From the UHGV virus genome UHGV-0097682: a stretch of 16,064 nt of DNA. One strand, 5' to 3'. Positions 3,040 to 15,777 of the stretch are shown here, one piece after another. The DNA is from a virus. Below the pieces are notes generated by a model, which was not told the origin of the DNA, did no database searches, and was given only the letters and a program-made list of their open reading frames with translations. Positions within the stretch are counted from its first letter, which is position 1, and every line of letters begins with the position of its first letter. The translations under genes and the position numbers were made by a program.

Positions 3040-3632
3040 ATCATAACGTCCGGTTTCTTCCGTGCCAGAACCGGACTCGCTGGCATGATGAAATATGTGT
3101 ACCCGGTAACCCCGGTGTGCATCGTTTTTGATTATTCCCGCACACTCGCGCAGAAGGAGTTCCCCGTCGGGCTACGGTCTCTGTTAATACGGGAATACGG
3201 CGACGATACAGCGCATGATGTGTCAGGCTTGAATACCTTTATCCTTTAAAAGGGATATCAGTTAAGTTATCCCGTGTAGGGTATAAGCCATTATCAAAGC
3301 CACTCTGTAGGGAATGGCTTTTGTGATGGCATCACTTACTCTTTACGCTGCTATCCCACTCATCCCGGAATTTTGATGGGTTATTGAAACCTTCTGCTGA
3401 CATAACAACTCCTTCAATGTTTGGCTGAAATTAGGATGTCTTTCCATCAGTCCGCCACCACAAAGAATCTTTTTTGCCATAAGGCAGGAGGTTCATCTTT
3501 CAGTGGCTGCCGGTGTTATTTCCCCACTTACTGGCTTGGGTTGTTTCGTGGTACTGCCGTTAACTGGTGGCCCAGAATAAATTCCGGTTTCATTATCAAG
3601 CCCACCCGTAGATAGGCTTTGTAATGACATCT

Positions 3633-4157
3633 TCAATTAATCAGCAGTTCAGGCTGTGTCACCTGCAAGATGTATTCATGCTCGACAGCCAGGACACGCT
3701 TCTCTTTCTTCCGTTCGTTCATTAACCGACTGCCGATCGTACCTTTCAGCTTTGAGCGTGTTTCTTTGATGGCGTAGCGGTGCTGCATTTCTTCGCCAAT
3801 TGCCATGCGGCGGCTCAGTTGCTCTGCCATCCAGTTGAATGCTGCGATATAGCTCTCCTTGATTGCCGCAGCAGCTTTCCCGGTGAACCCCATCACAACC
3901 ATGATCCAGCCATCTTTCGTCAGGCTGTACATCGGGCGAACCTTGCCCTGCTCATCGATATAATCAGCCGACGCAAAATTGCGTTGGCTAAACTCACGCG
4001 AGCAATCAGCCTTAACCTGCTCGATTTTCCTGAGAACATCACCGTGTCGCTTGCCGAAGTACTTGGCAATTTTTCTGGATGTGGTAACGACCTCTCCGTT
4101 TTTGGCTTGCACCATTTCTCGGAAGTCGAAGGCTGGAATAACTGAATGATTATTCAT
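3633..4157 (-). CDS. Rha-family phage regulatory protein (antirepressor-like)
   Basis: Track ORF 3633-4193 begins at a GTG. The internal ATG at 4155-4157 (MNNHSVIPAFDFREMVQAKNGEVVTTSRKIAKYFGKRHGDVLRKIEQV...) is the more likely start. The N-terminal region looks like the Rha/phage-regulatory domain family. Confidence 0.6.
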   Translation of the reverse strand: MNNHSVIPAFDFREMVQAKNGEVVTTSRKIAKYFGKRHGDVLRKIEQVKADCSREFSQRNFASADYIDEQGKVRPMYSLTKDGWIMVVMGFTGKAAAAIKESYIAAFNWMAEQLSRRMAIGEEMQHRYAIKETRSKLKGTIGSRLMNERKKEKRVLAVEHEYILQVTQPELLIN

Positions 4158-4299
4158 AGCGTCTTTACCTTTTAGAAAGTGAGCCTGTCTCACAGAAAAG
4201 CCGCCCGAGAGAGGTCGCCACCTATAACGGCATTTCTCAGGCTCGCTTACTGAAAGGCTCTCGTTAATATGCGCGTGAGATGCGCTGTGAAATTCAGAT

Positions 4300-4324
4300 A
4301 TAAAAAGCCCCGCGAATGCGAGGC
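4300..4324 (-). terminator. Probable rho-independent terminator downstream of the lysis cassette
   Basis: Minus-strand RNA gccucgcauucgcggggc forms a GC-rich stem (one G-U pair) followed by uuuuuauau. It lies between the Rz stop and the Rha start. Confidence 0.4.
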
Positions 4325-4498
4325 TAAATCCTGGTATTTGTAATGACTGGCTCTTATCTCAACGCAGCCCCTTACCGCGCGCAAGATGCTCAATATCAAG
4401 CATCAGCAATGAGATGTTTAATCTGGATTCACTCCAGAAGTGATCACCATCCTGTCTACAGAGCCAGATGTGAAGGATGATGAGTAAAATTATCGCTA

Positions 4499-4966
4499 TC
4501 ATCGAAGGCATTGCGTCCTGATGTATTCCTGAAGCGTTCTCAGTGCTGTTTGGTCGCGGATAATTCCGTCCCGGATACCGAGAACGTTTCGTCCAGCAAC
4601 TGGAGAGAGTTCGACGGTGGCATCATTGCCCATGCCGGAGGCGCTGGAGGTTTCGGCTGAGGATGGCACAGGGCATTTTCCTTTGACGAGCACCCTGCCA
4701 CCATTATCAAGCTTGCGCCGAAGAGCATCATTTTCAGCTTTCGCATCAGCTAACTCCTTCGTGTATTTAGCATCGAGTGCATCAGCAGCACGCTGGCGTC
4801 GCTGCATGTCAGTAATGGTGGCGGCCGCCTGCTTCAGCTCACTGACTTTTTTATCACGCTGTTCTTTGTAGGCGATGGCGTTATCACGGTAATGATTAAC
4901 AGCCCATGACAGGCAGACGATGATGCAGATAACCAGAGCAGAGATAATCGCGGTGACTCTGCTCAT
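4499..4966 (-). CDS. Rz: Rz i-spanin (inner-membrane spanin subunit)
   Basis: Track [34 protein letters not shown]... The first ~30 residues are lambda Rz-like with an N-terminal TM segment; the C-terminal half diverges from lambda. Its ATG overlaps the R stop (ATGA). Confidence 0.9.
4540..4746 (-). CDS. Rz1: Rz1 o-spanin (outer-membrane lipoprotein), embedded in the +1 frame of Rz
   Basis: Track [25 protein letters not shown]... has a signal peptide with lipobox VAGC and a Pro-rich segment ([16 protein letters not shown]). It is wholly embedded within Rz, as in lambda. Confidence 0.75.
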
Positions 4967-5439
4967 ACCTCAATCTCTCTGACCGTTCCGCCAGCCTCTT
5001 TGAATTTTGCAATCAGGCTGTCAGCCTTATGCTCGAACTGACCATAACCAGCCCCCGGCAGTGAAGCCCAGATGTTGCTGCAACGGTCGATAGCCTGACG
5101 GATATCACCGCGATCAATCATCGGCAAAGCGCCACGTTCCTTAATCTGCTGCAGCGCAACAGCGTCCTGGCTTTTGGGAGAGAAGTCTTTCAGGCCAAGC
5201 TGCTTACGATAGGCATCCCACCAACGGGAAAGAAGCTGGTAACGTCCGGCTGCTGTTGATTTGAGTTTGGGGTTTAGCGTGACAAGTTTGCGAGGGTGAT
5301 CGGAGTAATCAGTGAATAGCTCTCCGCCTACAATGACGTCATAACCGTGATTTCTGGTTTTCTGCCGTCCGTTATCTGTTCCTTCTGACCACGCCAGCAT
5401 ATCGAGGAACGCCTTACGTTGATTATTGATTTCCACCAT
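4963..5439 (-). CDS. R: Endolysin R (lambda-type lytic transglycosylase), 158 aa
   Basis: Track [52 protein letters not shown]... is near-identical to lambda R by recollection. Confidence 0.95.
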
Positions 5440-5746
5440 CTTCTACTCCGGCTTTTTTAGCAGCGAAGCGTTTGATAAGCGAACCAATCGAGTCAGTACC
5501 GATGTAGCCGATGAACACGCTCGTTATATAAGCGAGATTGCTACTTAGTCCGGCGAAGTCGAGAAGGTCACGAATGAACCAGGCGATAATGGCGCACATC
5601 GTTGCGTCGATTACTGTTTTTGTAAACGCACCGCCATTATATCTGCCGCGAAGGTACACCATTGCAAACGCAAGGATTGCCCCGATGCCTTGTTCCTTTG
5701 CCGCGAGAATGGCGGCTAACAGGTCATGTTTTTCTGGCATCTTCAT
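5423..5746 (-). CDS. S: Holin S (class I, lambda S107/S105 dual-start type), 107 aa
   Basis: Track [32 protein letters not shown]... is near-identical to lambda S. The Met1-Lys2-Met3 dual-start motif is present. Confidence 0.95.
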
Positions 5747-5988
5747 GTCTTACCCCCAATAAGGGGATTTGCTCTATTTAATTAGGAATAAGGTCTATTA
5801 CTGATAGAACAAATCCAGGCTACTGTGTTTAGTAATCAGATTTGTTCGTGACCGATATGCACGGGCAAAACGGCAGGAGGTTGTTAGCGCAGCCTCTTGC
5901 CACCCGCTTTCACGAAGGTCATGTGTAGAAGGCCGCAGCGTAACTATCACTGATGAGTTCAGGATAGCCAGTGGCTACGGCTCAGTTA

Positions 5989-6064
5989 TGGTGCTGGTTA
6001 ACGGACTTGAACCGCTACCCATTCGCTTACAAGGCGACCGCTCTACCATTGGAGCTAAACCAGC
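5989..6064 (-). tRNA. tRNA, anticodon read as UGU (Thr); 76 nt with encoded CCA
   Basis: Minus-strand sequence GCTGGTT-TA-GCTC-CAATGGTA-GAGC-G-GTCGC-CTTGTAA-GCGAA-TGGGT-AGCGG-TTCAAGT-CCGTT-AACCAGC-A-CCA folds by hand into a canonical cloverleaf. The acceptor stem is a perfect 7 bp; the D-loop has GG and the T-loop is TTCAAGT. The anticodon stem has one mismatch. Confidence 0.6.
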
Positions 6065-6069
6065 ATATT

Positions 6070-6144
6070 TGGCGGGACAGCGTGGACTCGAACCACGATA
6101 AGAAGGTTAACAGCCTTCCGTAATGACCTTTATACGACTGACCC
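6070..6144 (-). tRNA. tRNA-like gene, anticodon read as GUU (Asn); 75 nt with encoded CCA
   Basis: Minus-strand sequence GGGTCAG-TC-GTAT-AAAGGTCA-TTAC-G-GAAGG-CTGTTAA-CCTTC-TTAT-CGTGG-TTCGAGT-CCACG-CTGTCCC-G-CCA. The anticodon and T arms are perfect. The acceptor stem has one T-T mismatch and the D-stem is only 3 bp, so it may be partly degenerate. Confidence 0.5.
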
Positions 6145-6145
6145 A

Positions 6146-6207
6146 AATAAAAAATCCCGAAACCGTTGTGCAGGCTCTAACTATTACCTGCGAACTGTTT
6201 CGGGATT
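6146..6207 (-). terminator. tR' terminator (end of the short pR' leader transcript, lambda 6S RNA equivalent)
   Basis: Minus strand reads aucccgaaac...guuucgggau followed by uuuuuuau, a long GC-containing stem with a U-run. It lies about 190 nt downstream of the predicted pR' start, matching the lambda arrangement. Confidence 0.7.
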
Positions 6208-6339
6208 GCATTTTGCAGACCTCTCAGCCTGCGATGGTTGGAGTTCCAGACGATACGTCGAAGTGACCAACTAGGCGGAATCGGTAGTAAGCGCCGCCTC
6301 TTTTCATCTCACTACCACAACGAGCGAATTAACCCATCG

Positions 6340-6376
6340 TTGGGTCAAATTTACCCAACTTTATTCAAAAAGTCAA
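6340..6376 (-). promoter_or_regulatory. Late promoter pR' with expected qut site (Q-utilisation)
   Basis: Minus strand has TTGACT (-35; plus-strand 6371-6376), a 17-nt spacer and TAAATT (-10; plus-strand 6348-6353), immediately downstream of the Q stop. The sequence matches lambda pR' by recollection. Confidence 0.7.
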
Positions 6377-6418
6377 TATTATGCCGTTAATATGTTGCCA
6401 TCCGTGGCAATCATGCTG

Positions 6419-7042
6419 TTAACGTGTGACCGCATTCAAAATGTTGTCTGCGATTGACTCTTCTTTGTGGCATTGCACCACCAGAGCGTCATACAGCGGC
6501 TTAACAGTGCGTGACCAGGTGGGTTGAGTAAGGTTTGGGATTAGCATCGTTACAGCGCGATATGCGGCGCTTGCTGGCATTCTTGAATAGCCGACACCTT
6601 TGCATCTTCCGCACTCTTTCTCAACAACTCTCCCCCACTGCTCTGTTTTGGCTATATCAACCGCACGGCCTGTACCGTGGCAATCTCTGCATCTTGCGCC
6701 CGGCGTCGCGGCACTACGGCAATAATCCGCATAAGCGAATGTTGCGAGCACTTGCAGTACCTTTGCCTTAGTATTTCCTTCAAGCTTTGCAACGCCACGG
6801 TATTTCCCCGATACCTTGTGTGCAAATTGCATCAGATAGTTGATAGCCTTTTGTTTGTCGTTCTGGCTGAGTTCGTGCTTACCACAGAATGCAGCCATTC
6901 CGAATCCGGCTTGTGATTGCGCCATCCCCATAGCAGCCATCACATCAGTACCGGAAAGAGAGTCAGAAGCCGTAGCCCGTGGTGAGTCGCTCATCATCGG
7001 GCTTTTTGGCGAATGAAATTTAGCTGCGCTTTCGAGTCTCAT
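6419..7042 (-). CDS. Q: Late-gene antiterminator Q (lambda-type), 207 aa
   Basis: Track ORF MRLESAAKFHSPKSPMMSDSPRATASDSLSG... is near-identical to lambda Q. The zinc-binding Cys cluster (CRDCHGTG...CGRCKG) is present. Confidence 0.95.
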   Translation of the reverse strand: MRLESAAKFHSPKSPMMSDSPRATASDSLSGTDVMAAMGMAQSQAGFGMAAFCGKHELSQNDKQKAINYLMQFAHKVSGKYRGVAKLEGNTKAKVLQVLATFAYADYCRSAATPGARCRDCHGTGRAVDIAKTEQWGRVVEKECGRCKGVGYSRMPASAAYRAVTMLIPNLTQPTWSRTVKPLYDALVVQCHKEESIADNILNAVTR

Positions 7043-7227
7043 GGCCTTCCCCTTTTGCCCTGTTTGACCATCAGGACGCCGTTAACTATTACGTGACGCT
7101 CGCCTTTGCTGTCTCGGTTGTACTTGAGCACTGTTCCTCTTGCGCAGGAAAGCATCCTTGCCACTTCGGTCTGATTGCCTCGTGTCTGGATAAGAAGCTC
7201 TGGTATCGTTTGAATTGTGGCGTTCAT
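7039..7227 (-). CDS. ninH: NinH-like small protein
   Basis: Track ORF MNATIQTIPELLIQTRGNQTEVARMLSCARGTVLKYNRDSKG... resembles lambda NinH (TIPDML..GNQTEVARRL..SRGTVRKY). It overlaps the Q start and the RusA stop (ATGA). Confidence 0.7.
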   Translation of the reverse strand: MNATIQTIPELLIQTRGNQTEVARMLSCARGTVLKYNRDSKGERHVIVNGVLMVKQGKRGRP

Positions 7228-7586
7228 GCGTTCTCCAGTTCGGTGATTTTTATTCCAAGCCTTCCGCCTGGTACTTTCACGCCACGAATTACGCGAATGT
7301 CATCGAATTGCTCGTCGTCTTCCGCAAATCCGGCGTGGATAAGGGAGTCGAGTAAACCTTTCAGGATGTTGTCGAGGTCGCGACGGCGGGAGTCCGGAAC
7401 GTCTACGATGACTTTGATGCGGAGTCGTGATTTGGTGAAAATGTCTAACTTAAGTTGGCGGATGATTTGCTGAACGTCTTTTCGGTATTTCTGGCCTTTA
7501 TCGCTGATGTAGTATTGGCTTCCCCGTCTTCGCCAGTAGGTGTTCAGCGACGGCGGGTATGGAAGCACAAACTGATATTCGTTCAT
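7224..7586 (-). CDS. rusA: RusA-family Holliday-junction resolvase, 120 aa
   Basis: Track ORF MNEYQFVLPYPPSLNTYW...RRRDLDNILKGLLDSLIHAGFAEDDEQFDDIRVIRG... has the same length and conserved acidic motif (RRRDLDN) as E. coli DLP12 RusA. Confidence 0.85.
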   Translation of the reverse strand: MNEYQFVLPYPPSLNTYWRRRGSQYYISDKGQKYRKDVQQIIRQLKLDIFTKSRLRIKVIVDVPDSRRRDLDNILKGLLDSLIHAGFAEDDEQFDDIRVIRGVKVPGGRLGIKITELENA

Positions 7587-7873
7587 GGTTTAATCTTCCC
7601 CTCCTTCAGCAGTATCGCCTGCGTCCTGATCACGCCTTCGAGGTGGTAAAGTCTGGCGTCTTTGTTGTCGAGATTATGGGTGCGTCGGTCGATTTCATCG
7701 TGACACGCGCTACAAGCCCATGCGCCGATCAGGTCGTCAGGCTTCATTCCAGTTCCGCAAATTCCAGCCATCCGGTAATGTGCCAGAACTGTAGTTTCAG
7801 GATTACCATTGCATATTCCGTAAATACGTACCTGGCATTCTCTGCCGCGTGCTTCTTTGCGTAGGTTAGCCAT
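7583..7873 (-). CDS. Cys-rich nin-region protein (YbcO/DUF1364-like, putative nuclease)
   Basis: Track ORF of 96 aa with several Cys and His (CQVRIYGICNG...CGTG...CSACHDEID). It sits directly upstream of rusA, as ybcO does in DLP12. Family assignment is from memory. Confidence 0.6.
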   Translation of the reverse strand: MANLRKEARGRECQVRIYGICNGNPETTVLAHYRMAGICGTGMKPDDLIGAWACSACHDEIDRRTHNLDNKDARLYHLEGVIRTQAILLKEGKIKP

Positions 7874-8142
7874 TATGGTTCACTCCAGTAATTCTCAATT
7901 GCAGCAGCCATTCTCTGCATCCACTCAGCCAGCTTTAACGCAGCTTCTCTTTCAGAACCACATTTAGGGAAATCCTTCATTTCCATGCTGGCCTTATATG
8001 TTCTGAATGCCAGGTCTCCGGTAATAACCAACTCCTGATCAAGCACCGAGCGTTTATTCCGGTGTTGAACGTAATAGACAGATTCAGTCCGCATTTCTTC
8101 TCTGTCTTTTTTGAAGGAAATAAGCTCAGAGAAATCACTCAT
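7873..8142 (-). CDS. Hypothetical nin-region protein, 89 aa
   Basis: Track ORF. It is translationally coupled at both ends: its ATG overlaps the NinF stop, and its stop shares 1 nt with the next gene's start. Confidence 0.5.
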   Translation of the reverse strand: MSDFSELISFKKDREEMRTESVYYVQHRNKRSVLDQELVITGDLAFRTYKASMEMKDFPKCGSEREAALKLAEWMQRMAAAIENYWSEP

Positions 8143-8311
8143 CGTCTTCTTCCTCGTACATTGAGCTATTCGGATCGCTCATCAGTTCTGCGCAGCAATC
8201 GGAGCACACGTGAACTTCAAGCACATGCAGCTTCTGACCGCAGTTAGCGCACGTTAATGCCCGCTCGACGCTTTCTTTCTGGTATTGAAGGGATTGGGAT
8301 GGGCTAAGCAT
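8135..8311 (-). CDS. ninF: NinF-like protein, 58 aa
   Basis: Not in the track (under 60 aa). Hand translation gives [58 protein letters not shown], near-identical to lambda NinF by recollection. Confidence 0.75.
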   Translation of the reverse strand: MLSPSQSLQYQKESVERALTCANCGQKLHVLEVHVCSDCCAELMSDPNSSMYEEEDDE

Positions 8312-8729
8312 TATTGGCGTCCTGCATCATGAGAAATACAATCATGGCGGCGCGGAGTGGAGATTCACCGCAGAAGTAGTAGCCAGGAATATTTTCCCAT
8401 TCCCAACAACCTTCCTCTAAATCACCTCCTGACCATGCGCACCATTCTTTTTCCGCTGTCATCCACATAGTGCTGATTTTGCTTTCAGTGATAATTGGCC
8501 ACGCGTATTCAGGATTATTGCAAGGATTGAAGCAATTTCCGTTTGAAGAACGGAAGCCATTAATATCCCTTTTTTGCGTCTGCCAAATAGGACCTCTTTC
8601 GTCAGTGGGGATCTCAGAATCGAAGTCTGCTTCGTCATCAGGTATGAAGAAATGCTCCTCCATATCTAAAGCCTCACATACTCGTCTGTTAATTTCAAAA
8701 TCACTTAACTGTGAATAATCCATTGTCAT
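8304..8729 (-). CDS. Hypothetical acidic, Trp/Cys-rich nin-region protein, about 141 aa
   Basis: Track ORF 8304-8765. The probable start is the ATG at 8727-8729 ([16 protein letters not shown]...), which overlaps the NinE stop (ATGA). Confidence 0.55.
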
Positions 8730-8902
8730 TTCCTCGCACGATGTCTTAGCAACCGGATATCCCACAGGTGAGCCGTGTAGTTGAAGGTTTTTACGTCAGA
8801 TTCTTTTGGGATTGGCTTGCGTTTATTTCTGGTGCGTTTCGTTGGAAGGTATTTGCAGTTTTCGCAGATGATGTCGGTGATACTTCGTCGCTGTCGCCTC
8901 AT
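8726..8902 (-). CDS. ninE: NinE-like protein, 58 aa
   Basis: Internal start of track ORF 8726-8947. [50 protein letters not shown]... matches lambda NinE by recollection. Its ATG overlaps the NinB stop. Confidence 0.7.
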
Positions 8903-9309
8903 TCGTACCTCCTGTCGGTAAATCTGACACCCTGACCAATAGCCCATGCTGTTGTGTACTCGATCAGACTTGCCATACGCTTCACACTCATCTGCGCGCT
9001 GCTTTCGCGAATGTTGACGTATTCGCCTTCAAGCCCGGGCAAAACATCAGCTTCCTGTTTTGTTGCCACTGCATGACCGCTGATCAACAAAACCTTCCAT
9101 TGTTCTGGTTTTAACCATTTATCGCGCCACTGAACTTGCCTAGCGATATCTGCGACCATCGCGTGAAATTTTGCGTTCTGGTCAAGGTTGCGCTTGTAGT
9201 CAGTAATGCGGATGGTGACTGGCTTGTCTTTATCGAGTGGTGTTGCGAGGATGGCATTTATTGCAGCTTGCTGTTGTTGCTTAGTTCGGAGGAAGATTGT
9301 TTGCTTCAC
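8899..9309 (-). CDS. ninB: NinB-family recombination protein (Orf-like), 136 aa
   Basis: Track [24 protein letters not shown]...[21 protein letters not shown]... resembles lambda NinB (LDQNRKLWA..VSRQVEW) and occupies the same position. Confidence 0.8.
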
Positions 9310-9320
9310 TGAATACTCCT

Positions 9321-9512
9321 TTATTTTTTATGCCTGTAACCCCATTCTTCCAGCAACCTTGCGGCGTACCACCCAAGAAACAAAGGAAAGAACATTACAA
9401 TGAGATATTTCCCGCCACGGTCAATGTTCGAAATTGACCAGATTACGATGTAACCAGTGCAGGACAGGAATATTACAAACCCCAAAAAGCTACTTCGTCG
9501 ACTCATGCTCAC
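9321..9512 (-). CDS. Small predicted membrane protein, 63 aa (two hydrophobic segments)
   Basis: Track ORF MSMSRRSSFLGFVIFLSCTGYIVIWSIS...YLIVMFFPLFLGWYAARLL. Its start overlaps the upstream gene's stop (ATGA). Confidence 0.45.
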   Translation of the reverse strand: MSMSRRSSFLGFVIFLSCTGYIVIWSISNIDRGGKYLIVMFFPLFLGWYAARLLEEWGYRHKK

Positions 9513-9925
9513 TCCTTCACTTTGATTCCAGCGGCGCGGATAGCCTCTACATCGCTTTCGTATTGCGATTCTGCACCTGAGTCATAGCCAATGTGATAAT
9601 CACCGGGAAGTGGGCCTTTCTTTGGCTTTTGCAGCTCAATTTCAATAGCTGCTCTCGATGCCTGCCACGTTTGCCAGTGGCCTTGAACATCGTCCATCAC
9701 GTATTGACCACCAATATCACCACTGCCAATTTCATGGTGATTTTCAGGGTAACGGATAAGGTCTGAAGATTCGCCCCCACGTCGTAACCAACTCTCTTCA
9801 AACTGGCATCTGCTTTCGTCATCTTTCATAAGGCAGTCACATTCAATAAAAATCGGCTCTCCCCAAGGAGTAGAACCTCCGCTATCACACATTCCTGTGT
9901 TATTGCACTTTTGGCACTTGCTCAC
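9509..9925 (-). CDS. Hypothetical protein with N-terminal Cys cluster, 138 aa
   Basis: Track ORF MSKCQKCNNTGMCDSGG...IECDCLMKDDESRCQ... has a CxxC...C...CxC pattern suggesting a small metal-binding domain. No family recognised. Confidence 0.5.
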   Translation of the reverse strand: MSKCQKCNNTGMCDSGGSTPWGEPIFIECDCLMKDDESRCQFEESWLRRGGESSDLIRYPENHHEIGSGDIGGQYVMDDVQGHWQTWQASRAAIEIELQKPKKGPLPGDYHIGYDSGAESQYESDVEAIRAAGIKVKE

Positions 9926-9937
9926 ATTAACCTCCGA

Positions 9938-10144
9938 TTAACTCACAAAACGCCACGCCACTTTTGCTACGACAACAGGCATAACACCGATAATCACCCA
10001 CAGAAAAATGCTACCGAAAAGCACACCAACCAGGTCTTTACCTTCGCCTACCAACCGGACAAAACTGCTGGCAACCACAATGAACGTCGCCACCATCCAC
10101 ATAGCACCGAGAATCCTCAATGCAGAAAAAATCAACTCAACCAC
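9938..10144 (-). CDS. Small predicted membrane protein, 68 aa (GTG start in track)
   Basis: Track ORF. It is almost entirely hydrophobic with two predicted TM helices. Confidence 0.4.
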   Translation of the reverse strand: MVELIFSALRILGAMWMVATFIVVASSFVRLVGEGKDLVGVLFGSIFLWVIIGVMPVVVAKVAWRFVS

Positions 10145-10220
10145 GATTTACCCTCCCCCAAATAAAAAGGCCTGCGATTACCAGCAGGCCTGTTACAAGC
10201 TCAGTGATGTAGATGGTCAT
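10137..10220 (-). CDS. Possible 27-aa hydrophobic peptide coupled to the helicase stop
   Basis: Hand translation gives MTIYITELVTGLLVIAGLFIWGRVNRG. Its ATG (10218-10220) overlaps the helicase stop (ATGA). Not in the track because of length. Confidence 0.25.
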   Translation of the reverse strand: MTIYITELVTGLLVIAGLFIWGRVNRG

Positions 10221-11671
10221 CAGAATCCTCCTTTCTTCTTGGACTGCGATTCCTCGCGTTCACGGCGGCGCATTTCAGCAGACTGTTGGTCTGTGTCATA
10301 AATAGCGCCATTTGCCTGAATGCAATACACCGTGCCGGTATTGCCATGACGATTGAGACGAAGGATTAGTTCGGTTTCACCAGGTGGAACACTGTCATCA
10401 AAAGCACCTTCACGATGGATCCCCACCCAATAATCGCAATCCTGTTCAATCTGCCCTGTATCTCGTGAGTCACTTGGTAATGGGCGTTTATTGGTTCGGC
10501 TTTCCAGTGCGCGGTTAAGCTGTGTCAGAAGCACAACAACGCAATCAAGCTCTTTGGCAAGGTTCTTCAGTCCTTTGGTGATCATGCCGTAAGCAAGGTC
10601 GTTGCGATCGGCCTTCTCAGCGGTCATTAGTGTCAGGTAATCGACCAGAATCATGCCAACACATCCTTTTTCTCGCTTGATTCGACGGCTTTCGCTGACG
10701 ATTTGAGCCAGAGATAATCCCGGCGTGTCGTCGATGTAAAGCAGGTCGATTTCACTCAAGCGATTGGCTGTTTCGATCGCCCTGTTGAAGTCACCATCGT
10801 AATCACCCTGATAGCCGTCATCAGCGTCATTTGTCGCCGGAAGGTAAAAAATATTCGGGTTAACACCTGACTTCTGTCCTACCAGTTTTTCCAGTATCTG
10901 GTCACCGGGCATTTCAAGGCTGAACATCAGAGCGGGCTTTTTCTCATGCACTGCGCAGTTGATTGCCATCTGGCTGTATAGCGTCGTTTTCCCCATCTTA
11001 GGGCGAGCGCCAATGACAAACAGAGAGCCTTTCACCAGGCCTTTCGGTGACAGCATCCTGTCCAGCGATGGGATCCCTGTGCTCATTCCTCGTTGTTCGC
11101 CTGACGGGTCAAATCGCTTCTCAAGGTCGCTAACCCAGTCTTCCATGACCTCACCAAATGAGCGAAGGCCGCGACGCGATCCGGTTTTTGCATGGTCTGT
11201 CAGTTGCGTGAAAATCGACTGAATAGCTTCGTACTTCTGCGTTGCAGTCATTCCGTTGCGGGAATAGAGCAATTCCGTCGCTTCAGTCATGCGGTTGATG
11301 GCGTAGCGTTCCATTGCGGTTTCACGAACCTGCATTGCATAGGCAACGATGTTTGCTGCGCTTGGCGTGTTCTTTGCGATCTCAGCGATATAAGCAAAAC
11401 CGCCAACAGACACCGTTAACGATTTACGCTCCAGTTCATCGAAAAGCGTCAGGCCATCTACTGGCTTTTGCTCACGGTGCATTCTGGTTATTTCTTCGAA
11501 AATGATTTTGTGTGGTCGGCTGTAAAATGAATCAGGCTTCAGCATCGCCAGGACTTTCTGGACGCGCTCACTGCTGTCATCATCCAGAAGCAATCCACCA
11601 ATCACCGCCTGCTCTGCCTCGATACTATGGGGCGGCGCATAAAAATTATCGGTCATCGTGTTCACCCTCAC
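10220..11671 (-). CDS. Replicative DNA helicase, DnaB family (P22 gene 12-type)
   Basis: Track ORF of 483 aa with Walker A GARPKMGKTT and DnaB-like motifs (DNA-binding N-terminus, RecA-like C-terminus). The track start is GTG; an in-frame ATG at 11654-11656 (MTDNFYAPP...) is the more likely start. Confidence 0.9.
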   Translation of the reverse strand: MRVNTMTDNFYAPPHSIEAEQAVIGGLLLDDDSSERVQKVLAMLKPDSFYSRPHKIIFEEITRMHREQKPVDGLTLFDELERKSLTVSVGGFAYIAEIAKNTPSAANIVAYAMQVRETAMERYAINRMTEATELLYSRNGMTATQKYEAIQSIFTQLTDHAKTGSRRGLRSFGEVMEDWVSDLEKRFDPSGEQRGMSTGIPSLDRMLSPKGLVKGSLFVIGARPKMGKTTLYSQMAINCAVHEKKPALMFSLEMPGDQILEKLVGQKSGVNPNIFYLPATNDADDGYQGDYDGDFNRAIETANRLSEIDLLYIDDTPGLSLAQIVSESRRIKREKGCVGMILVDYLTLMTAEKADRNDLAYGMITKGLKNLAKELDCVVVLLTQLNRALESRTNKRPLPSDSRDTGQIEQDCDYWVGIHREGAFDDSVPPGETELILRLNRHGNTGTVYCIQANGAIYDTDQQSAEMRRREREESQSKKKGGF

Positions 11672-12545
11672 GAACTTTCAGGTAGGTATTATCGTTAAGC
11701 AGGAAATCAAATCCCTTTTTGTGCCAGACGGTTCCGCGTTGATGGTTTGGGCGCTCTTCGAACATCCATCGGCAATTTTCGCCTACGTAGCTCAAATAAT
11801 TTCTCCAGTCCTGCATCGTGAACCCATGCCCGTCAAGCTGGCGGGTTATCACTCCGGCTTTGCGCCAGAACGTTCGGATCTGGTTTTTACGCTTGTCATT
11901 CAGTGCGCGGATTCTTGGCGCTTCAGGAAGGATTTCGTGGTAAGCATCGACAACATCCTGACAGCTAACGGAAGGTTTTTTCTTGTCAGACTTTTTGTCT
12001 GCTGCGGTACTCTCTAATACGTCAGTATTAGAGATAATATTATTATATTCTTTATCTGTGGTAATTTGCTGGTAATCTGCTGGTACAGTATTGCTTGCAG
12101 GCATTGGTATTGCTGGCTTTGAGGTGGTAATTTGCTGGTAATCTGCTGGTACAAAATTTGACTGATAATCGTCATATTTCTCTACCGAGAAAACTGAGAA
12201 TTTACCGTGTGAAACCCAGTCAATCATGCCGAGTTTTTTGAACTTTCTAAGCAGGTACTGAACGCGATCTGGTTTGAGTCCTGTTTCAAACGCCAGAGAG
12301 TTTCTACCGCCAAGTAGCTTCCCTCTGCCTACCAGAATTTCTCCTGCGTCAGTCATTACATACTCAGGCGTATGCTTTGCTTTGAGGATTAAGTGAACCC
12401 ACAGATGCGCTGCTTCTGCGTCCTTGTAAAACGGCACATCCATAATTTTACGGTGCAGCAAGGCATACCCCTTACCGCTGCTTTGATGCGGTTGTTGTAG
12501 CCTTCTGGCCTCTCTGGCTTCGGCTAGATTAGATATGTTACTCAT
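11646..12545 (-). CDS. Replication initiator (lambda O-analogous); origin iterons embedded in the coding sequence
   Basis: Track ORF of 299 aa directly upstream of the helicase and downstream of cII. It contains an internal repeated peptide ([10 protein letters not shown] twice, 22 aa apart) encoded by DNA direct repeats. Confidence 0.8.
12058..12153. repeat. ori: Putative replication origin: two 30-bp direct repeats (66-bp period), each made of 11-bp iterons tggtaatNtgc, flanked by AT-rich DNA
   Basis: gtggtaatttgctggtaatctgctggtaca occurs at 12058-12087 and again at 12124-12153, with a degenerate copy (tggtattgctgg) between. AT-rich stretches lie at 12019-12056 and 12154-12180. Confidence 0.6.
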
Positions 12546-12684
12546 GACCTTTCTCCTTCTGCATCAGCTTCACTTTTTCCAACTCAGCCCGGAATCGACC
12601 AGGCTGCTTGAAGCTGGACAGGAAGCGATCACGTAGTATGTGTTTGTGAATTTTGTCCTGGTAAGGACTGAGTTGTTTTGTCAT
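12538..12684 (-). CDS. Possible small ORF (48 aa) between cII and the initiator gene
   Basis: Hand translation gives [48 protein letters not shown]. Its stop overlaps the initiator ATG. No homolog recognised. Confidence 0.35.
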
Positions 12685-12716
12685 AATGACTCCTGTGGAT
12701 TGATCCAGTAATTCCC

Positions 12717-13013
12717 TCAGAATTGCATATCAATTTGCTTAAAATCCTCGGTGGCGGCCGGGGATTTTTTCTTTGTGATTTCATCAAGCGCATACTTAAA
12801 AGCCCTGCTAATCGGACTGATGTCTGATGCCATTCCGAAAGCACACAAGACCGAAGCAATAAATCTCCAGTCCGTTCTGCTTATCTTCGATTCATGACAG
12901 CCAATCATCTTTGCCAGACCGCGCTGGGTAATAGCTGACAGATTGATAAGTAAATCTGTTTCTGCGCGATCAACGTCACGCTGTGATAGTTTGCTGTAAC
13001 TTGTTCTTTCCAT
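12717..13013 (-). CDS. cII: cII-like transcriptional activator, 98 aa
   Basis: Track ORF. It is the same length as lambda CII and shares its C-terminal tail ([18 protein letters not shown] here, NKKRPAATERSEQIQMEF in lambda), plus an HTH segment ([14 protein letters not shown]). It sits between cro/nutR and the replication genes. Confidence 0.85.
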
Positions 13014-13098
13014 TTCTTAAGATTTCCAATAGTGAATAGTTAGTTGAAAGGTATGCGTGGAAACGCATATGGCCTTAGTTGGTCAGATATCTTGGAAC

Positions 13099-13144
13099 TC
13101 GCTTTTCAGCGACGTAGGACGAATGTCCGTTGTTACAAAGAGCG
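13099..13144 (-). promoter_or_regulatory. nutR: nutR (boxA + boxB) N-utilisation site
   Basis: Minus strand has boxA CGCTCTTTGTAACAA, a 17-nt spacer, then boxB hairpin TCGCT-GAAA-AGCGA (5-bp stem, GAAA loop). It lies between the cro stop and cII. Confidence 0.55.
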
Positions 13145-13154
13145 GATCCGCTTA

Positions 13155-13370
13155 TTAAGCGGCTTTGTGTTCCGGCGGGAACACGTCATCAAGACTGACT
13201 TTTGCGCCTAACTTGTTTAGGCACGCAACAAGAGCACGGCATGTTTTAAGGTCTGGGAAGCGACGACCAGATTCCCAATGTCCGATAGCTCCCTGTGTGC
13301 ATCCAACTGCCTTAGCAAGTGTTGTTTGAGAGATATTCAGTGACTCTCGATATTTTCGTAGGTTGCTCAT
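13155..13370 (-). CDS. cro: Cro-like repressor (HTH), 71 aa
   Basis: Internal start of track ORF 13155-13541: MSNLRKYRESLNISQTTLAKAVGCTQGAIGHWESGRRFP... The ATG at 13368-13370 is preceded by GGAGGG. The HTH recognition helix (TQGAIGHW) is paralogous to the cI one (TQGGIGHW). It is divergent from cI. Confidence 0.8.
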   Translation of the reverse strand: MSNLRKYRESLNISQTTLAKAVGCTQGAIGHWESGRRFPDLKTCRALVACLNKLGAKVSLDDVFPPEHKAA

Positions 13371-13487
13371 ATGCCCTCCATAGTAAACACGAATAAAAAA
13401 ATACAATATGTACTTTGCGAATACAAGTAAAAATACATATTGTGCATGGATGGTTCCAGTACAGAGCGTAATAATAAGGACATGAAA
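13371..13487. promoter_or_regulatory. OR operator / pR-pRM divergent promoter region
   Basis: Intergenic region between divergent cro and cI. Imperfect palindromic sites of the form TACA-N3-TGTA occur at 13402-13412 (tacaatatgta) and 13434-13444 (tacatattgtg), with a weaker candidate between them. Confidence 0.6.
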
Positions 13488-14138
13488 ATGAAATGGTATG
13501 AACTGGCTAGATCCAGAATGAAAGAGCTCGGCATAACTCAAGAGAAGTTAGCCGAAGAGCTAGGTATGACGCAGGGTGGGATTGGACACTGGTTGCGCGG
13601 ATCTCGTCATCCATCTCTTAGTGATATTGGTGTGGTGTTTAAATACCTTGGTATTGATAACATATCATTCAACCACGACGGGACATTTTCACCTGTTGGC
13701 GAATACTCATCGGCCCCAGTTAAAAAACAATATGAGTACCCTGTTTTTTCTCATGTTCAGGCTGGGATGTTCTCTCCAGAACTCAGAACCTTTACCAAAG
13801 GCGATGCGGAGAGATTGGTAAGCACAACCAAAAAAGCCAGTGACTCTGCATTCTGGCTTGAGGTTGAAGGTAACTCAATGACCGCACCAACAGGTTCCAA
13901 ACCCAGCTTTCCTGACGGGATGTTAATTCTGGTTGACCCTGAGCAAGCTGTTGAGCCCGGCGATTTCTGCATAGCCAGACTTGGTGGTGATGAATTTACC
14001 TTCAAGAAACTGATCAGGGATAGCGGTCAGGTGTTTCTACAGCCACTAAACCCACAATACCCAATCCCATGCAATGAGAGTTGTTCCGTTGTGGGGAAAG
14101 TTATCGCCAGCCAATGGCCTGAAGAGACGTTTGGGTGA
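13488..14138 (+). CDS. cI: CI repressor: N-terminal HTH domain of non-lambda specificity fused to a lambda-type C-terminal autocleavage/dimerisation domain (S24-like)
   Basis: Track ORF 13440-14138. The likely start is the ATG at 13488 (MKWYELARS...), with aagga 8 nt upstream; the ATG at 13482 is an alternative. The C-terminal ~130 aa match lambda CI by recollection, including the Ala-Gly cleavage site (VQAGMF), the catalytic Ser (GNSMT) and Lys (FTFKKL). The N-terminal domain differs from lambda. Confidence 0.9.
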
Positions 14139-14177
14139 TGAAACCACTTTTATCTACAATTTACAGGGCGGTAAACA

Positions 14178-14735
14178 TTGGCAAAAATAGATGATTATCA
14201 GCCAAGCCAAGTAGAAGTTGATAAAGTACTTTATTGTAAAAAAATAGTTAACTTTTCTGGCGTTAAATGGAAACAGAAACCAAGTCGCTCTGATATGTGG
14301 CTACAAGCCCATATCATCCCCTTGGATGAGGATTGTATACCTATACAAGGGCTAAAGTTTGAACTGAAATGGAAACCAGATCAGGATTCAGAACCTGATG
14401 ACCCGATTTCTTACCCTAAAATAAATATTATTGCTTTCTATCATAACAAGAGGGTTTTCGCGGTAGATACCTATCACTTTGACAAACACACGAATAGTTA
14501 CAAGGTCGATCATCCGAAGTACCAAGATATCATTTACGGTGCTCACTACCATGTATACTATGAAGAAGCTGGATACTATAGTGATAGAATAGCGTTTCCA
14601 ATCGAAGATGACATAAACCCAGATGACCTGGTAGGGTATTGGAATTACTTCTGTAAACATCTGAACATAACTTACTCTGGGAGAATACCTTTACCGCTTG
14701 AAGATGAGTCGGGGCAAATGGGGTTTGGAATATGA
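14178..14735 (+). CDS. Hypothetical protein, 185 aa, His/Tyr/Asp-rich; first gene of the AT-rich operon downstream of cI (rexA position)
   Basis: Track ORF with a TTG start; the first in-frame ATG is at codon 40. There are no TM segments and no Walker motif. Codon usage is visibly AT-rich compared with cI. Its stop overlaps the next gene's ATG (ATGA). Confidence 0.6.
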   Translation: MAKIDDYQPSQVEVDKVLYCKKIVNFSGVKWKQKPSRSDMWLQAHIIPLDEDCIPIQGLKFELKWKPDQDSEPDDPISYPKINIIAFYHNKRVFAVDTYHFDKHTNSYKVDHPKYQDIIYGAHYHVYYEEAGYYSDRIAFPIEDDINPDDLVGYWNYFCKHLNITYSGRIPLPLEDESGQMGFGI

Positions 14736-15484
14736 TGTGCTCAACAGTGATCTCACAACTAGGTTTCGAATGCCATCCAATAGGCAAGACCTTGAGAATT
14801 ATCAGTCCATTCACTTACTGTGATGATGGAGAGCATGTCGGTGCCTTTATCCGTGAAGTCAATGGTAGGTATTTAGTTAGTGACAGATGCGATGCCTTAA
14901 TGAATATGGAGGCAAGAGGGATCTCGCTTACCAAAAAACGACTTGATGAGATACGACAATTACTGCTTAAAGAAGGCGCAGAACTCAATGCTCGAGGAGA
15001 AATCATTGCTTGGGCAACAGAAAAGGATGTCGGTGCGATTACATCGAACATAATTAGAGCTGGTATACTCGCATCAACTTTGTCGTTAGACTGGTATCAG
15101 CCAGTTCAAGCTGAAAAGTTTGAAAGTATGGTTATTGATTATCTATATCACACAGAGCTTAGAGACGCACTTTCTCTTCGTGAAAACGTATATGGCTTGA
15201 GTGGACATCAAATTACCGTCCCTGTAACAATAAAAACCGACATACCTAAATACGTTTTTACATCAAGCGTGAAACACGGAGGAAGCTGGAATAGTGCTTA
15301 CTCATTGCTTGGGAAACTAATTGATCTTAAAGCTTCAAGTGAGGAGTATAACAACAGATTTGTTGTTATAGACAGCGAAGCAATTGGTGATCAAATGCAA
15401 CAACTCTCCTTACTCTTCCATGAATCAAGCCAAGTTCTACCATTCTCCAAAAGAGAGACTTGGGTTAAGAGACTTGCAGCATAA
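14732..15484 (+). CDS. Hypothetical protein, 250 aa; second gene of the cI-downstream operon (rexB position, but not RexB-like)
   Basis: Track ORF MMCSTVISQLGFECHPIGKTLRIISPFTY... appears soluble and has no recognisable catalytic motif by eye. It is followed by a terminator. Confidence 0.65.
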   Translation: MMCSTVISQLGFECHPIGKTLRIISPFTYCDDGEHVGAFIREVNGRYLVSDRCDALMNMEARGISLTKKRLDEIRQLLLKEGAELNARGEIIAWATEKDVGAITSNIIRAGILASTLSLDWYQPVQAEKFESMVIDYLYHTELRDALSLRENVYGLSGHQITVPVTIKTDIPKYVFTSSVKHGGSWNSAYSLLGKLIDLKASSEEYNNRFVVIDSEAIGDQMQQLSLLFHESSQVLPFSKRETWVKRLAA

Positions 15485-15489
15485 TACAA

Positions 15490-15515
15490 CCCGGCCTCAG
15501 CGCCGGGTTTTCTTT
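15490..15515 (+). terminator. Rho-independent terminator ending the cI operon (tImm-like)
   Basis: Stem cccggc / gccggg with a 6-nt loop, followed by ttttctttg, 6 nt after the stop of the 250-aa gene. Confidence 0.55.
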
Positions 15516-15702
15516 GCCTCACGTTCGCCCACCTAAAAACACATAACCAATTATATTTATTGAAAAATAAATAGATGCAACCCACTAAACCACGCAATTC
15601 TGATCTCTCCTTACATCGCCGAGGCAATACATCCACGCTAAAAAACAACACTATTAAATACAAAGCGTTATAAAAAACCACGCCAACTTACAACAAATTA
15701 TA

Positions 15703-15731
15703 TTGATCTTGTAAAGTACATATCGTACTAT
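15703..15731 (+). promoter_or_regulatory. Putative pL promoter with overlapping OL operator
   Basis: TTGATC (-35, 15703-15708), a 17-nt spacer and TACTAT (-10, 15726-15731). The operator-like palindrome tacatatcgta (15717-15727) overlaps the -10. The orientation and distance to nutL and N fit the lambda layout. Confidence 0.45.
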
Positions 15732-15777
15732 TTAACCGTCAGCAGGACGCTGGAAGCCAAATGGAACAGACTGGCAG

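Follow-up and report, generated by a model that had tools for sequence, protein, structure and literature searches.

A probable VT2-Sakai-type lysis–lysogeny switch with a chimeric cI repressor and putative operators in a lambdoid prophage

The segment 13155–14138 of the window (the whole stretch of viral DNA that was analysed, 16,064 bp) spans exactly cro, the intergenic OR region and cI, and is very probably the lysis–lysogeny switch of a lambdoid prophage, of the immunity type of VT2-Sakai (Sp5) and of the Stx1-converting phage. This switch is already known: it has been on record in the Shiga-toxin phage VT2-Sakai for more than 20 years, and its operators are annotated in GenBank. By comparison with lambda DNA, the cI gene is a recombinant, whose joint lies in the inter-domain linker.

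Layout, immunity type and state of the locus

The gene order of the whole window is that of a lambdoid prophage in reverse orientation. The leftmost gene, terminase A, runs off the left end of the window and is followed by Nu1; then come, rightward and in this order, the lysis genes, two tRNA genes, Q and the nin region, the DnaB-like P gene, the O gene and cII, next cro, OR and cI, and last two ORFs, a terminator, OL and the start of N. The features that surround and form the switch are the following.

12717–13013, minus strand: cII homologue, downstream of cro (Pfam Phage_CII, E = 5e-31)
13104–13143, minus strand: nutR-like site, a boxA-like GCTCTTTGTAACAACG and then a hairpin
13155–13370, minus strand: cro, 71 aa, an all-alpha HTH_3 Cro (Pfam HTH_3, E = 4e-12)
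OR region, 111 bp: intergenic, within the divergent pair formed by cro (minus strand) and cI (plus strand)
cI, plus strand, stop at 14138: longest ORF from 13440, likely start ATG 13482 or 13488
13482–13730, plus strand: N-terminal HTH domain and linker of cI, non-lambda (Pfam HTH_3)
13731–14138, plus strand: C-terminal S24 autocleavage/oligomerisation domain of cI, lambda type (Peptidase_S24, E = 3e-26)
14178–14735 and 14732–15484, plus strand: two ORFs of the ORF list, in the position of rexA and rexB
15488–15509, plus strand: intrinsic terminator, closing the cI operon
15778–15817, plus strand: nutL-like site, sharing a 40-nt pattern with the nutR-like site

The boxA and boxB parts of the two nut-like sites are presumed from lambdoid nut sites in general. 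Downstream of cI, rexA and rexB are absent and a different gene pair stands in their place, presumably co-transcribed with cI, which matches PDC-M24A (E = 5e-4) and PDC-M24B (E = 5e-10) in PADLOC, and DUF1828 in Pfam. The 122 bp around the terminator (15488–15609) are 90% identical to the lambda DNA that lies just downstream of rexB.

The assignment to the VT2-Sakai type relies on the close identity of the region with known phages. The DNA at 13100–14200 is 99.6% identical to that of phages ev017, ev207, PhiR57_1 and PhiR63_2, and about 98% identical to that of the Stx1-converting phage, Stx2 phage II, VT2-Sakai and the PA-series Stx2a phages; over the cro–OR–cI segment, the identity across VT2-Sakai-type phages is 98.2–99.6%, and VT2-Sakai DNA is 98.35% identical across 11231–14136 of the window. 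At the protein level, the window and these phages share the same N-terminal domain of cI and the same Cro; in Stx2 phage II, the PA phages and the Stx1-converting phage, the identity is 100% over the 83 aa of the former and over the 71 aa of the latter. Cro is 100% identical in Nil2 and 1717 as well, its exact sequence occurs on at least 1000 contigs, and the N-terminal domain of cI is 100% identical in 56 phage records. The type is also common in bacterial chromosomes, since the segment made of cro, OR and the N-terminal domain is found in 776 of 5426 complete E. coli genomes (about 14%, or one in seven).

E. coli Nissle 1917 is one of the strains that carry this immunity region, in a defective prophage next to icd. 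A "phage repressor pr" of Nissle was reported to protect K-12 against lambda and Stx phages (Bury et al. 2018); its identification with the cI considered here was rejected, the published primers mapping to the cII homologue (12692–13059).

The surroundings of the switch are mosaic. When the complete E. coli genomes were searched with the whole window, none was found to cover more than 60%. For the backbone, the best match in E. coli is that of APEC IMT5155, which covers 3238–13045 and ends between cII and the nutR-like site, and the PhiR57_1-like match begins at 12677; the position of these two ends suggests that the immunity cassette was apparently exchanged via the common cII gene. The cII gene and the nut sites are common to the window and the VT2-Sakai type. 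The genes between cI and OL, on the contrary, are unlike those of VT2-Sakai and of the Stx1 phage, and are shared with ev017, PhiR57_1 and Nissle.

The likeness with the VT2-Sakai type extends to the putative operators, six 17-bp sites which occupy the same places, three in OR and three, mirrored, in OL.

13399–13415: putative OR1, AAATACAATATGTACTT, the sole exact TACA-N3-TGTA, overlapping the spacer and −10 of the predicted PR
13431–13447: putative OR2, AAATACATATTGTGCAT, centre 43 bp upstream of ATG 13482
13457–13473: putative OR3, CAGTACAGAGCGTAATA, centre 17 bp upstream of ATG 13482, overlapping the predicted PRM
15656–15672: putative OL3, AAATACAAAGCGTTATA, the best unbiased OR-to-OL 17-mer match to OR3 (13–14 of 17 positions, depending on the register)
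15689–15705: putative OL2, TACAACAAATTATATTG, a weakened copy, with TATA where its relatives have TGTA
15714–15730: putative OL1, AAGTACATATCGTACTA, mirror image of OR1 (14–15 of 17 positions, depending on the register), overlapping the predicted PL

The GenBank entry of the Stx1-converting phage (AP005153) has three putative operators in OR and three in OL, together with promoters, exactly at these positions. When the sites are compared to the VT2-Sa list published in 2023 (PMC10742460), OR1, OR3 and OL1 are identical, OR2 differs by one base in the central N3, OL3 by one base and OL2 by two. Within OR, the window and the Stx1-converting phage differ only between the sites or in the central N3, and not in the TACA and YGTR half-sites.

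What sets this copy apart from the VT2-Sakai type is one missing Met codon in cI, and a base change in one half-site of each of OL2 and OL3. By count, the missing codon is the equivalent of lambda M212, in the C-terminal domain; it is present in all five relatives that were compared (four VT2-Sakai-type loci and lambda). The cI protein of the window occurs in its exact form on only two contigs. Considering this missing codon and the weakened OL2, the copy in the window may work less well than the type.

One could go further and regard the copy as the remnant of a prophage in decay or domesticated, whose switch has ceased to control a viable phage and is kept only for superinfection immunity and for the adjacent defence-like genes. 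The missing conserved codon, the rarity of the exact protein and the G-to-A change in the OL2 half-site are compatible with decay, as is the fact that the N frame stops after codon 30; in Nissle, moreover, the prophage that holds the region is defective, and its integrase gene, beside an IS element, is partial. We nevertheless regard this explanation as unlikely, since a one-codon deletion need not inactivate cI, all the other genes, from terminase to cI, are intact, and the break in N may be an assembly artefact: homology to the relatives ends at 16009, 55 nt before the end of the metagenome contig.

The two domains of cI and the matching Cro

As shown by homology, the predicted cI product is a two-domain, LexA-like (S24) repressor, in which an HTH_3 head precedes a lambda-type tail. 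The head matches Pfam HTH_3 over residues 11–58 (E = 2e-10), and its recognition helix, TQGGIGHW, corresponds to residues 30–37. In the tail, Ala-Gly is found at residues 94–95, Ser at 132 and Lys at 175 (numbering of the 218-aa protein), and the motifs QAGMF, GNSMT and TFKKL, which hold the cleavage site, the catalytic Ser and the Lys, align with lambda and are identical to it. The best solved structures are those of lambda repressor (3bdn, E = 8e-94) and of its C-terminal domain (1f39).

In a BLASTP alignment with lambda cI, the protein is 71% identical as a whole; over the first 90 residues the two resemble each other weakly (the N-terminal domain is 30% identical to that of lambda over 50 aa), and beyond them the match is essentially complete to the C-terminus. 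The DNA reveals the same discontinuity in a sharper manner: 13731–14139 is 92.7% identical to lambda 37637–37226, while upstream of 13731 no DNA similarity to lambda 35000–39000 was found. The junction is abrupt and falls in the inter-domain linker, some 10 codons ahead of the Ala-Gly cleavage site, and a second boundary of lambda homology coincides exactly with the cI stop codon. These results bear out the original prediction that cI is chimeric relative to lambda and that its C-terminal domain matches that of lambda, the protein identity being about 98.5% over this domain. The 27 substitutions that separate the C-terminal stretch from lambda include a single amino-acid change (W to L), the other 26 being synonymous, which shows this stretch to be under strong purifying selection. 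A comparable contrast between high C-terminal and low N-terminal homology of the VT2-Sa and lambda repressors is ascribed to Fattah et al. 2000 in PMC10742460.

Tails that are at least 95% identical to the lambda type are found either on a lambda-type head (lambda, HK97, HK542) or on the head described here; in Salmonella phages, a related head (52% identical) is joined to a lambda-type tail that is 81% identical. The cI of HK97 was considered as a third DNA-binding type on the lambda tail, and rejected: its N-terminal domain is 98% identical to that of lambda, so that HK97 cI is lambda cI, and HK97, which has lambda immunity, is grouped with lambda.

Cro does not resemble lambda Cro either, since BLASTP returns no alignment between the two at E ≤ 100. 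It is related to the head of cI instead (35% identity over 62 aa, E = 1e-12); both match HTH_3, and the recognition helix of Cro, TQGAIGHW at residues 25–32, is nearly that of the repressor. [quoted passage not shown] The non-lambda character and mutual paralogy of the two domains had been read from the letters of the DNA, and both hold; the searches with the head of cI and with Cro lead to VT2-Sakai-type phages, at 100% identity.

Such a pairing is familiar from P22 and 434, whose Cro is an all-alpha paralogue of the N-terminal domain of the repressor, with a near-identical helix, and reads the same operators. The window resembles these phages in the homology between Cro and the repressor head and in their common recognition helix, and weak PDB matches to the N-terminal domain of P22 C2 were obtained; the sequences and the operator cores differ. 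The repressor of 933W is another LexA-like cI from an Stx phage. It is described as binding five operators with 15-bp sites, in a non-cooperative manner, and as having S41 and K46 in its recognition helix (PMC3317979). As described there, these two residues do not fit the helix found here.

Relation to lambda and immunity specificity

The window shares with lambda the divergent arrangement of cI and cro, the presence of three operators on each side and the terminator that follows the cI operon. The position of the operators relative to the cI ATG is also similar: the centre of OR2 is 43 bp upstream here and 42 in lambda, and that of OR3, 17 and 19 bp, respectively. The spacing between the centres of OR1 and OR2 is different, 32 bp here versus 24 in lambda. 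The recognition helix is TQGGIGHW here and GQSGVGAL in lambda, and the operator core is TACA-N3-YGTR, in contrast to the TATCACCGC type of lambda. Cro, an HTH_3 protein here, is unrelated in sequence to the Cro type of lambda, and rexAB is replaced. As a matter of fact, neither a lambda-type DNA-binding domain of cI, nor a lambda-type Cro, nor lambda-type operators are present at the locus; the six sites have no common core with those of lambda OR or OL, and lambda 35000–39000 contains a single one-mismatch match to the TACA-type core, inside cI. It had been proposed that the immunity region was built on a lambda scaffold. The tail of the repressor and the layout are indeed lambda-like, but the expression is overstated, since just three stretches of the window match lambda 35000–39000: the C-terminal domain of cI, the 122-bp stretch around the terminator and about 100 bp at the 3′ end of cII.

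Since the window departs from lambda in its recognition helix, in its operators and in its Cro, it is plausible that the immunity specificity is distinct from that of lambda.

The opposite view is that this repressor and that of lambda show cross-reaction, whether at each other's operators or by combining into mixed oligomers through the shared tail, and that the phages are at least partly homoimmune. The results that could be explained in this manner concern VT2-Sakai: cross-immunity with lambda is attributed to Fattah et al. 2000, second-hand, in the part of PMC10742460 that cites it, and EMSA in the same article shows that lambda cI shifts each of the six VT2-Sa operator oligos, the apparent KD being 3.7–6.4 µM. 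The near identity of the C-terminal domains goes in the same direction. It is important to note, however, that in this assay lambda cI binds to OR1 and OL1 of lambda 10–25 times more strongly (PMC10742460), that the EMSA bears on single sites and quotes no non-operator control, and that the recognition helices differ and the operators have no common core with the TATCACCGC type. We therefore consider cross-reaction very unlikely.

Putative operators, promoters and the working of the switch

The operators had been predicted as TACA-N3-TGTA sites shared by OR and OL and unlike those of lambda. The common, dyad-symmetric core is indeed present on both sides and is not lambda-like, but the exact form is found only once: TACANNNTGTA occurs at 13402–13412, compared to 0.25 occurrences expected in the window, which alone is not significant. 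OL2 and OL3 each have two mismatches to TACA-N3-TGTA, and the core of the putative operators is better written TACA-N3-YGTR, within 17-mers of the form AAnTACAnnnyGTAnTT. The OL sites extend over 15656–15730, beyond the segment 13155–14138 to which the original prediction was assigned. The centres of the sites are 32 and 26 bp apart in OR, 33 and 25 bp apart in OL.

The frequency of these palindromes depends on where it is considered. Over the whole window, the TACA-N3-TGTA core with at most one mismatch is not enriched in total, with five matches where 4.7 are expected. What counts is their clustering: four of the five matches fall in the two intergenic regions, which make up 553 bp (3.4% of the window; binomial P = 7e-6), and of the composition-matched Markov simulations of these regions 0.08% reached four matches. 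The relaxed core TACA-N3-YGTR has six matches compared to 1.2 expected, a number that was reached by one of 200 shuffles. In addition, an unbiased comparison of all 17-mers of OR with those of OL pairs OR1 with OL1 and OR3 with OL3, in mirrored orientation.

The closest switch of a different type is the immC region of Salmonella phage ST64T and of phage L, whose Cro is 69% identical to that of the window and whose C2 N-terminal domain is 55% identical to the head of cI. The helices of ST64T, TQGAIGHW and TQGAIGHY, are near those found here. Three TACA-N3-YGTR sites are present in the OR of ST64T (centres 34 and 26 bp apart) and three in its OL (30 and 25 bp), and in both ST64T and the window the centre of OR3 is 17 bp before an internal Met-Lys start. 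On the contrary, the tail of C2 is not lambda-like, C2 is only 47% identical to the cI of the window overall, and the intergenic DNA differs. That the motif and the geometry are the same despite this divergence provides independent support for the operators.

It is thus extremely improbable that the TACA-N3-TGTA sites arose by chance in AT-rich intergenic DNA, with the true operators lying elsewhere, as the single exact occurrence and the unremarkable total could have suggested, given the clustering of the matches, the pairing of the sites in the unbiased comparison and the same motif, number and spacing in ST64T, where the proteins are only 55–69% identical. The searchable literature, including papers on the regulatory regions of Stx phages, yielded no binding, footprint or immunity experiment on this repressor, and the operators are referred to as putative throughout.

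The promoters are predicted at the following positions.

13398–13426, minus strand: PR, −35 TTGTAT (13426–13421), 17-bp spacer, −10 TATTTT (13403–13398)
13447–13475, plus strand: PRM, −35 TGGATG (13447–13452), 17-bp spacer, −10 AATAAT (13470–13475)
15703–15731: PL, −35 TTGATC (15703–15708), 17-bp spacer, −10 TACTAT (15726–15731)

These promoters match just 7–8 of the 12 consensus positions (PR, 7 of 12), and a consensus promoter scan detected none of the three, so that their positions rest on manual reading and on the putative features of GenBank AP005153, with which they agree. The message transcribed from PRM is leaderless in lambda. By analogy, transcription from PRM may start at or beside ATG 13482 in the window, and the cI message may be leaderless too.

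The working of the switch can be proposed from the sequence and from what is known of lambda. A dimer of cI would read, by means of its HTH heads, the 17-bp pseudo-palindromes with the core TACA-N3-YGTR, and the lambda-type tail would supply dimerisation, pairwise cooperativity and RecA-stimulated self-cleavage. As in lambda, repressor bound at OR1 and OR2 would block PR, the repressor at OR2, 43 bp before the cI ATG, would activate PRM, and its presence at OR3 would turn PRM off. By binding to these operators, Cro would favour lytic growth. Cooperativity between adjacent sites in the manner of lambda is an assumption here, considering the wider spacing between OR1 and OR2.

The locus is a textbook case of lambdoid mosaicism, in which a domain exchange inside cI is combined with the exchange of the immunity region as a cassette. 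For annotation, the prophage of the window can be assigned to the VT2-Sakai immunity group, which is medically relevant because its repressor controls the induction of Stx2 phages. The research value lies only in the idea that a common C-terminal domain couples phages that are otherwise heteroimmune. Since the dimerisation and cooperativity domain is virtually the same in both repressors, it is conceivable that this cI and a lambda-type cI form mixed dimers or higher-order complexes when they meet in one cell, which would result in cross-immunity or in a dominant-negative "anti-immunity" in spite of the different operators. We consider this quite unlikely. If it were true, the cross-immunity ascribed to Fattah et al. 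2000 would be accounted for, and immunity groups with a common C-terminal domain would not be independent of one another.

The cII gene and the limits of the immunity cassette

A prophage of APEC IMT5155 matches the backbone of the window from 3238 on with 99.5% identity, and this match stops at 13045; on the immunity side, the match with PhiR57_1 (12677–16009, 99.3% identity) begins at 12677. Since these two matches overlap within cII, the alignments suggest that the immunity cassette has been exchanged via recombination in this conserved gene.

12717–13013, minus strand: cII homologue (gene of a cII-family activator), within the primer-mapped segment 12692–13059

This segment is the one to which the cloning and qPCR primers used by Bury et al. 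(2018) for the "phage repressor" of E. coli Nissle 1917 (pr, EcN_1294) map (PMC5987069). The primers thus target the cII-family activator gene rather than cI. The pr gene of Nissle 1917 was reported to protect K-12 approximately 200-fold against lambda and Stx phages (PMC5987069).

Cro, cI and the genes that follow

Among solved structures, the top match of Cro (13155–13370) is a "lambda repressor-like protein" of 82 amino acids (PDB 28tn, E = 4.5e-17), which is far nearer to Cro than is the N-terminal domain of P22 C2. The cI gene of the window is one Met codon short at 14063/14064, after QYP, whereas this codon is present in VT2-Sakai, the Stx1 phage, PhiR57_1, Nissle 1917 and lambda; the missing residue is, by our own count, the equivalent of M212 of lambda. 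The exact cI protein was seen in two metagenome contigs only, one of them being the window itself.

14178–14735 and 14732–15484, plus strand: two overlapping ORFs that follow cI and precede the terminator, at the place of rexA/rexB

In PADLOC, the two ORFs match component A (E = 5e-4) and component B (E = 5e-10) of PDC-M24, a candidate defence pair, and Pfam returns DUF1828 and, under its cut-off, DUF6978. Nissle 1917, ev017 and PhiR57_1 also have this pair of ORFs behind the cI, while VT2-Sakai and the Stx1 phage have different genes in this place.

N, nut-like sites and tRNA genes

5989–6144, minus strand: genes of tRNA-Thr(TGT) and tRNA-Asn(GTT), with Q (6419–7042) on one side and the holin gene on the other
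15921–16013: ORF of the N antiterminator, ending after 30 codons
15778–15817 (plus strand) and 13143–13104 (minus strand): pair of nut-like sites

In Stx phages, tRNA and toxin genes sit between Q and the holin gene; the window has no toxin genes at this position. The identity to N of relatives breaks off at 16009/16010, 55 nt short of the contig end; either the left arm of the prophage is truncated here or the break is an artefact of the assembly. The inferred PL has one of the nut-like sites downstream of it, and cro has the other; each site carries GCTCTTTnnAACAACG, followed by a short hairpin, whose sequence differs between the two, and then by TACGTsGCTGAAA.

Likeness to the immC region of ST64T

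1419–1489 and 2231–2296 of Salmonella phage ST64T (L006): sites with the core TACA-N3-YGTR

The OL of ST64T contains AAGTACATTTTGTATTG in two exact copies. Because the ST64T/phage L type of immC shares the core TACA-N3-YGTR with the window, and its recognition helix is nearly identical, cross-immunity between the VT2-Sakai type of E. coli and the L type of Salmonella is conceivable from the sequences.
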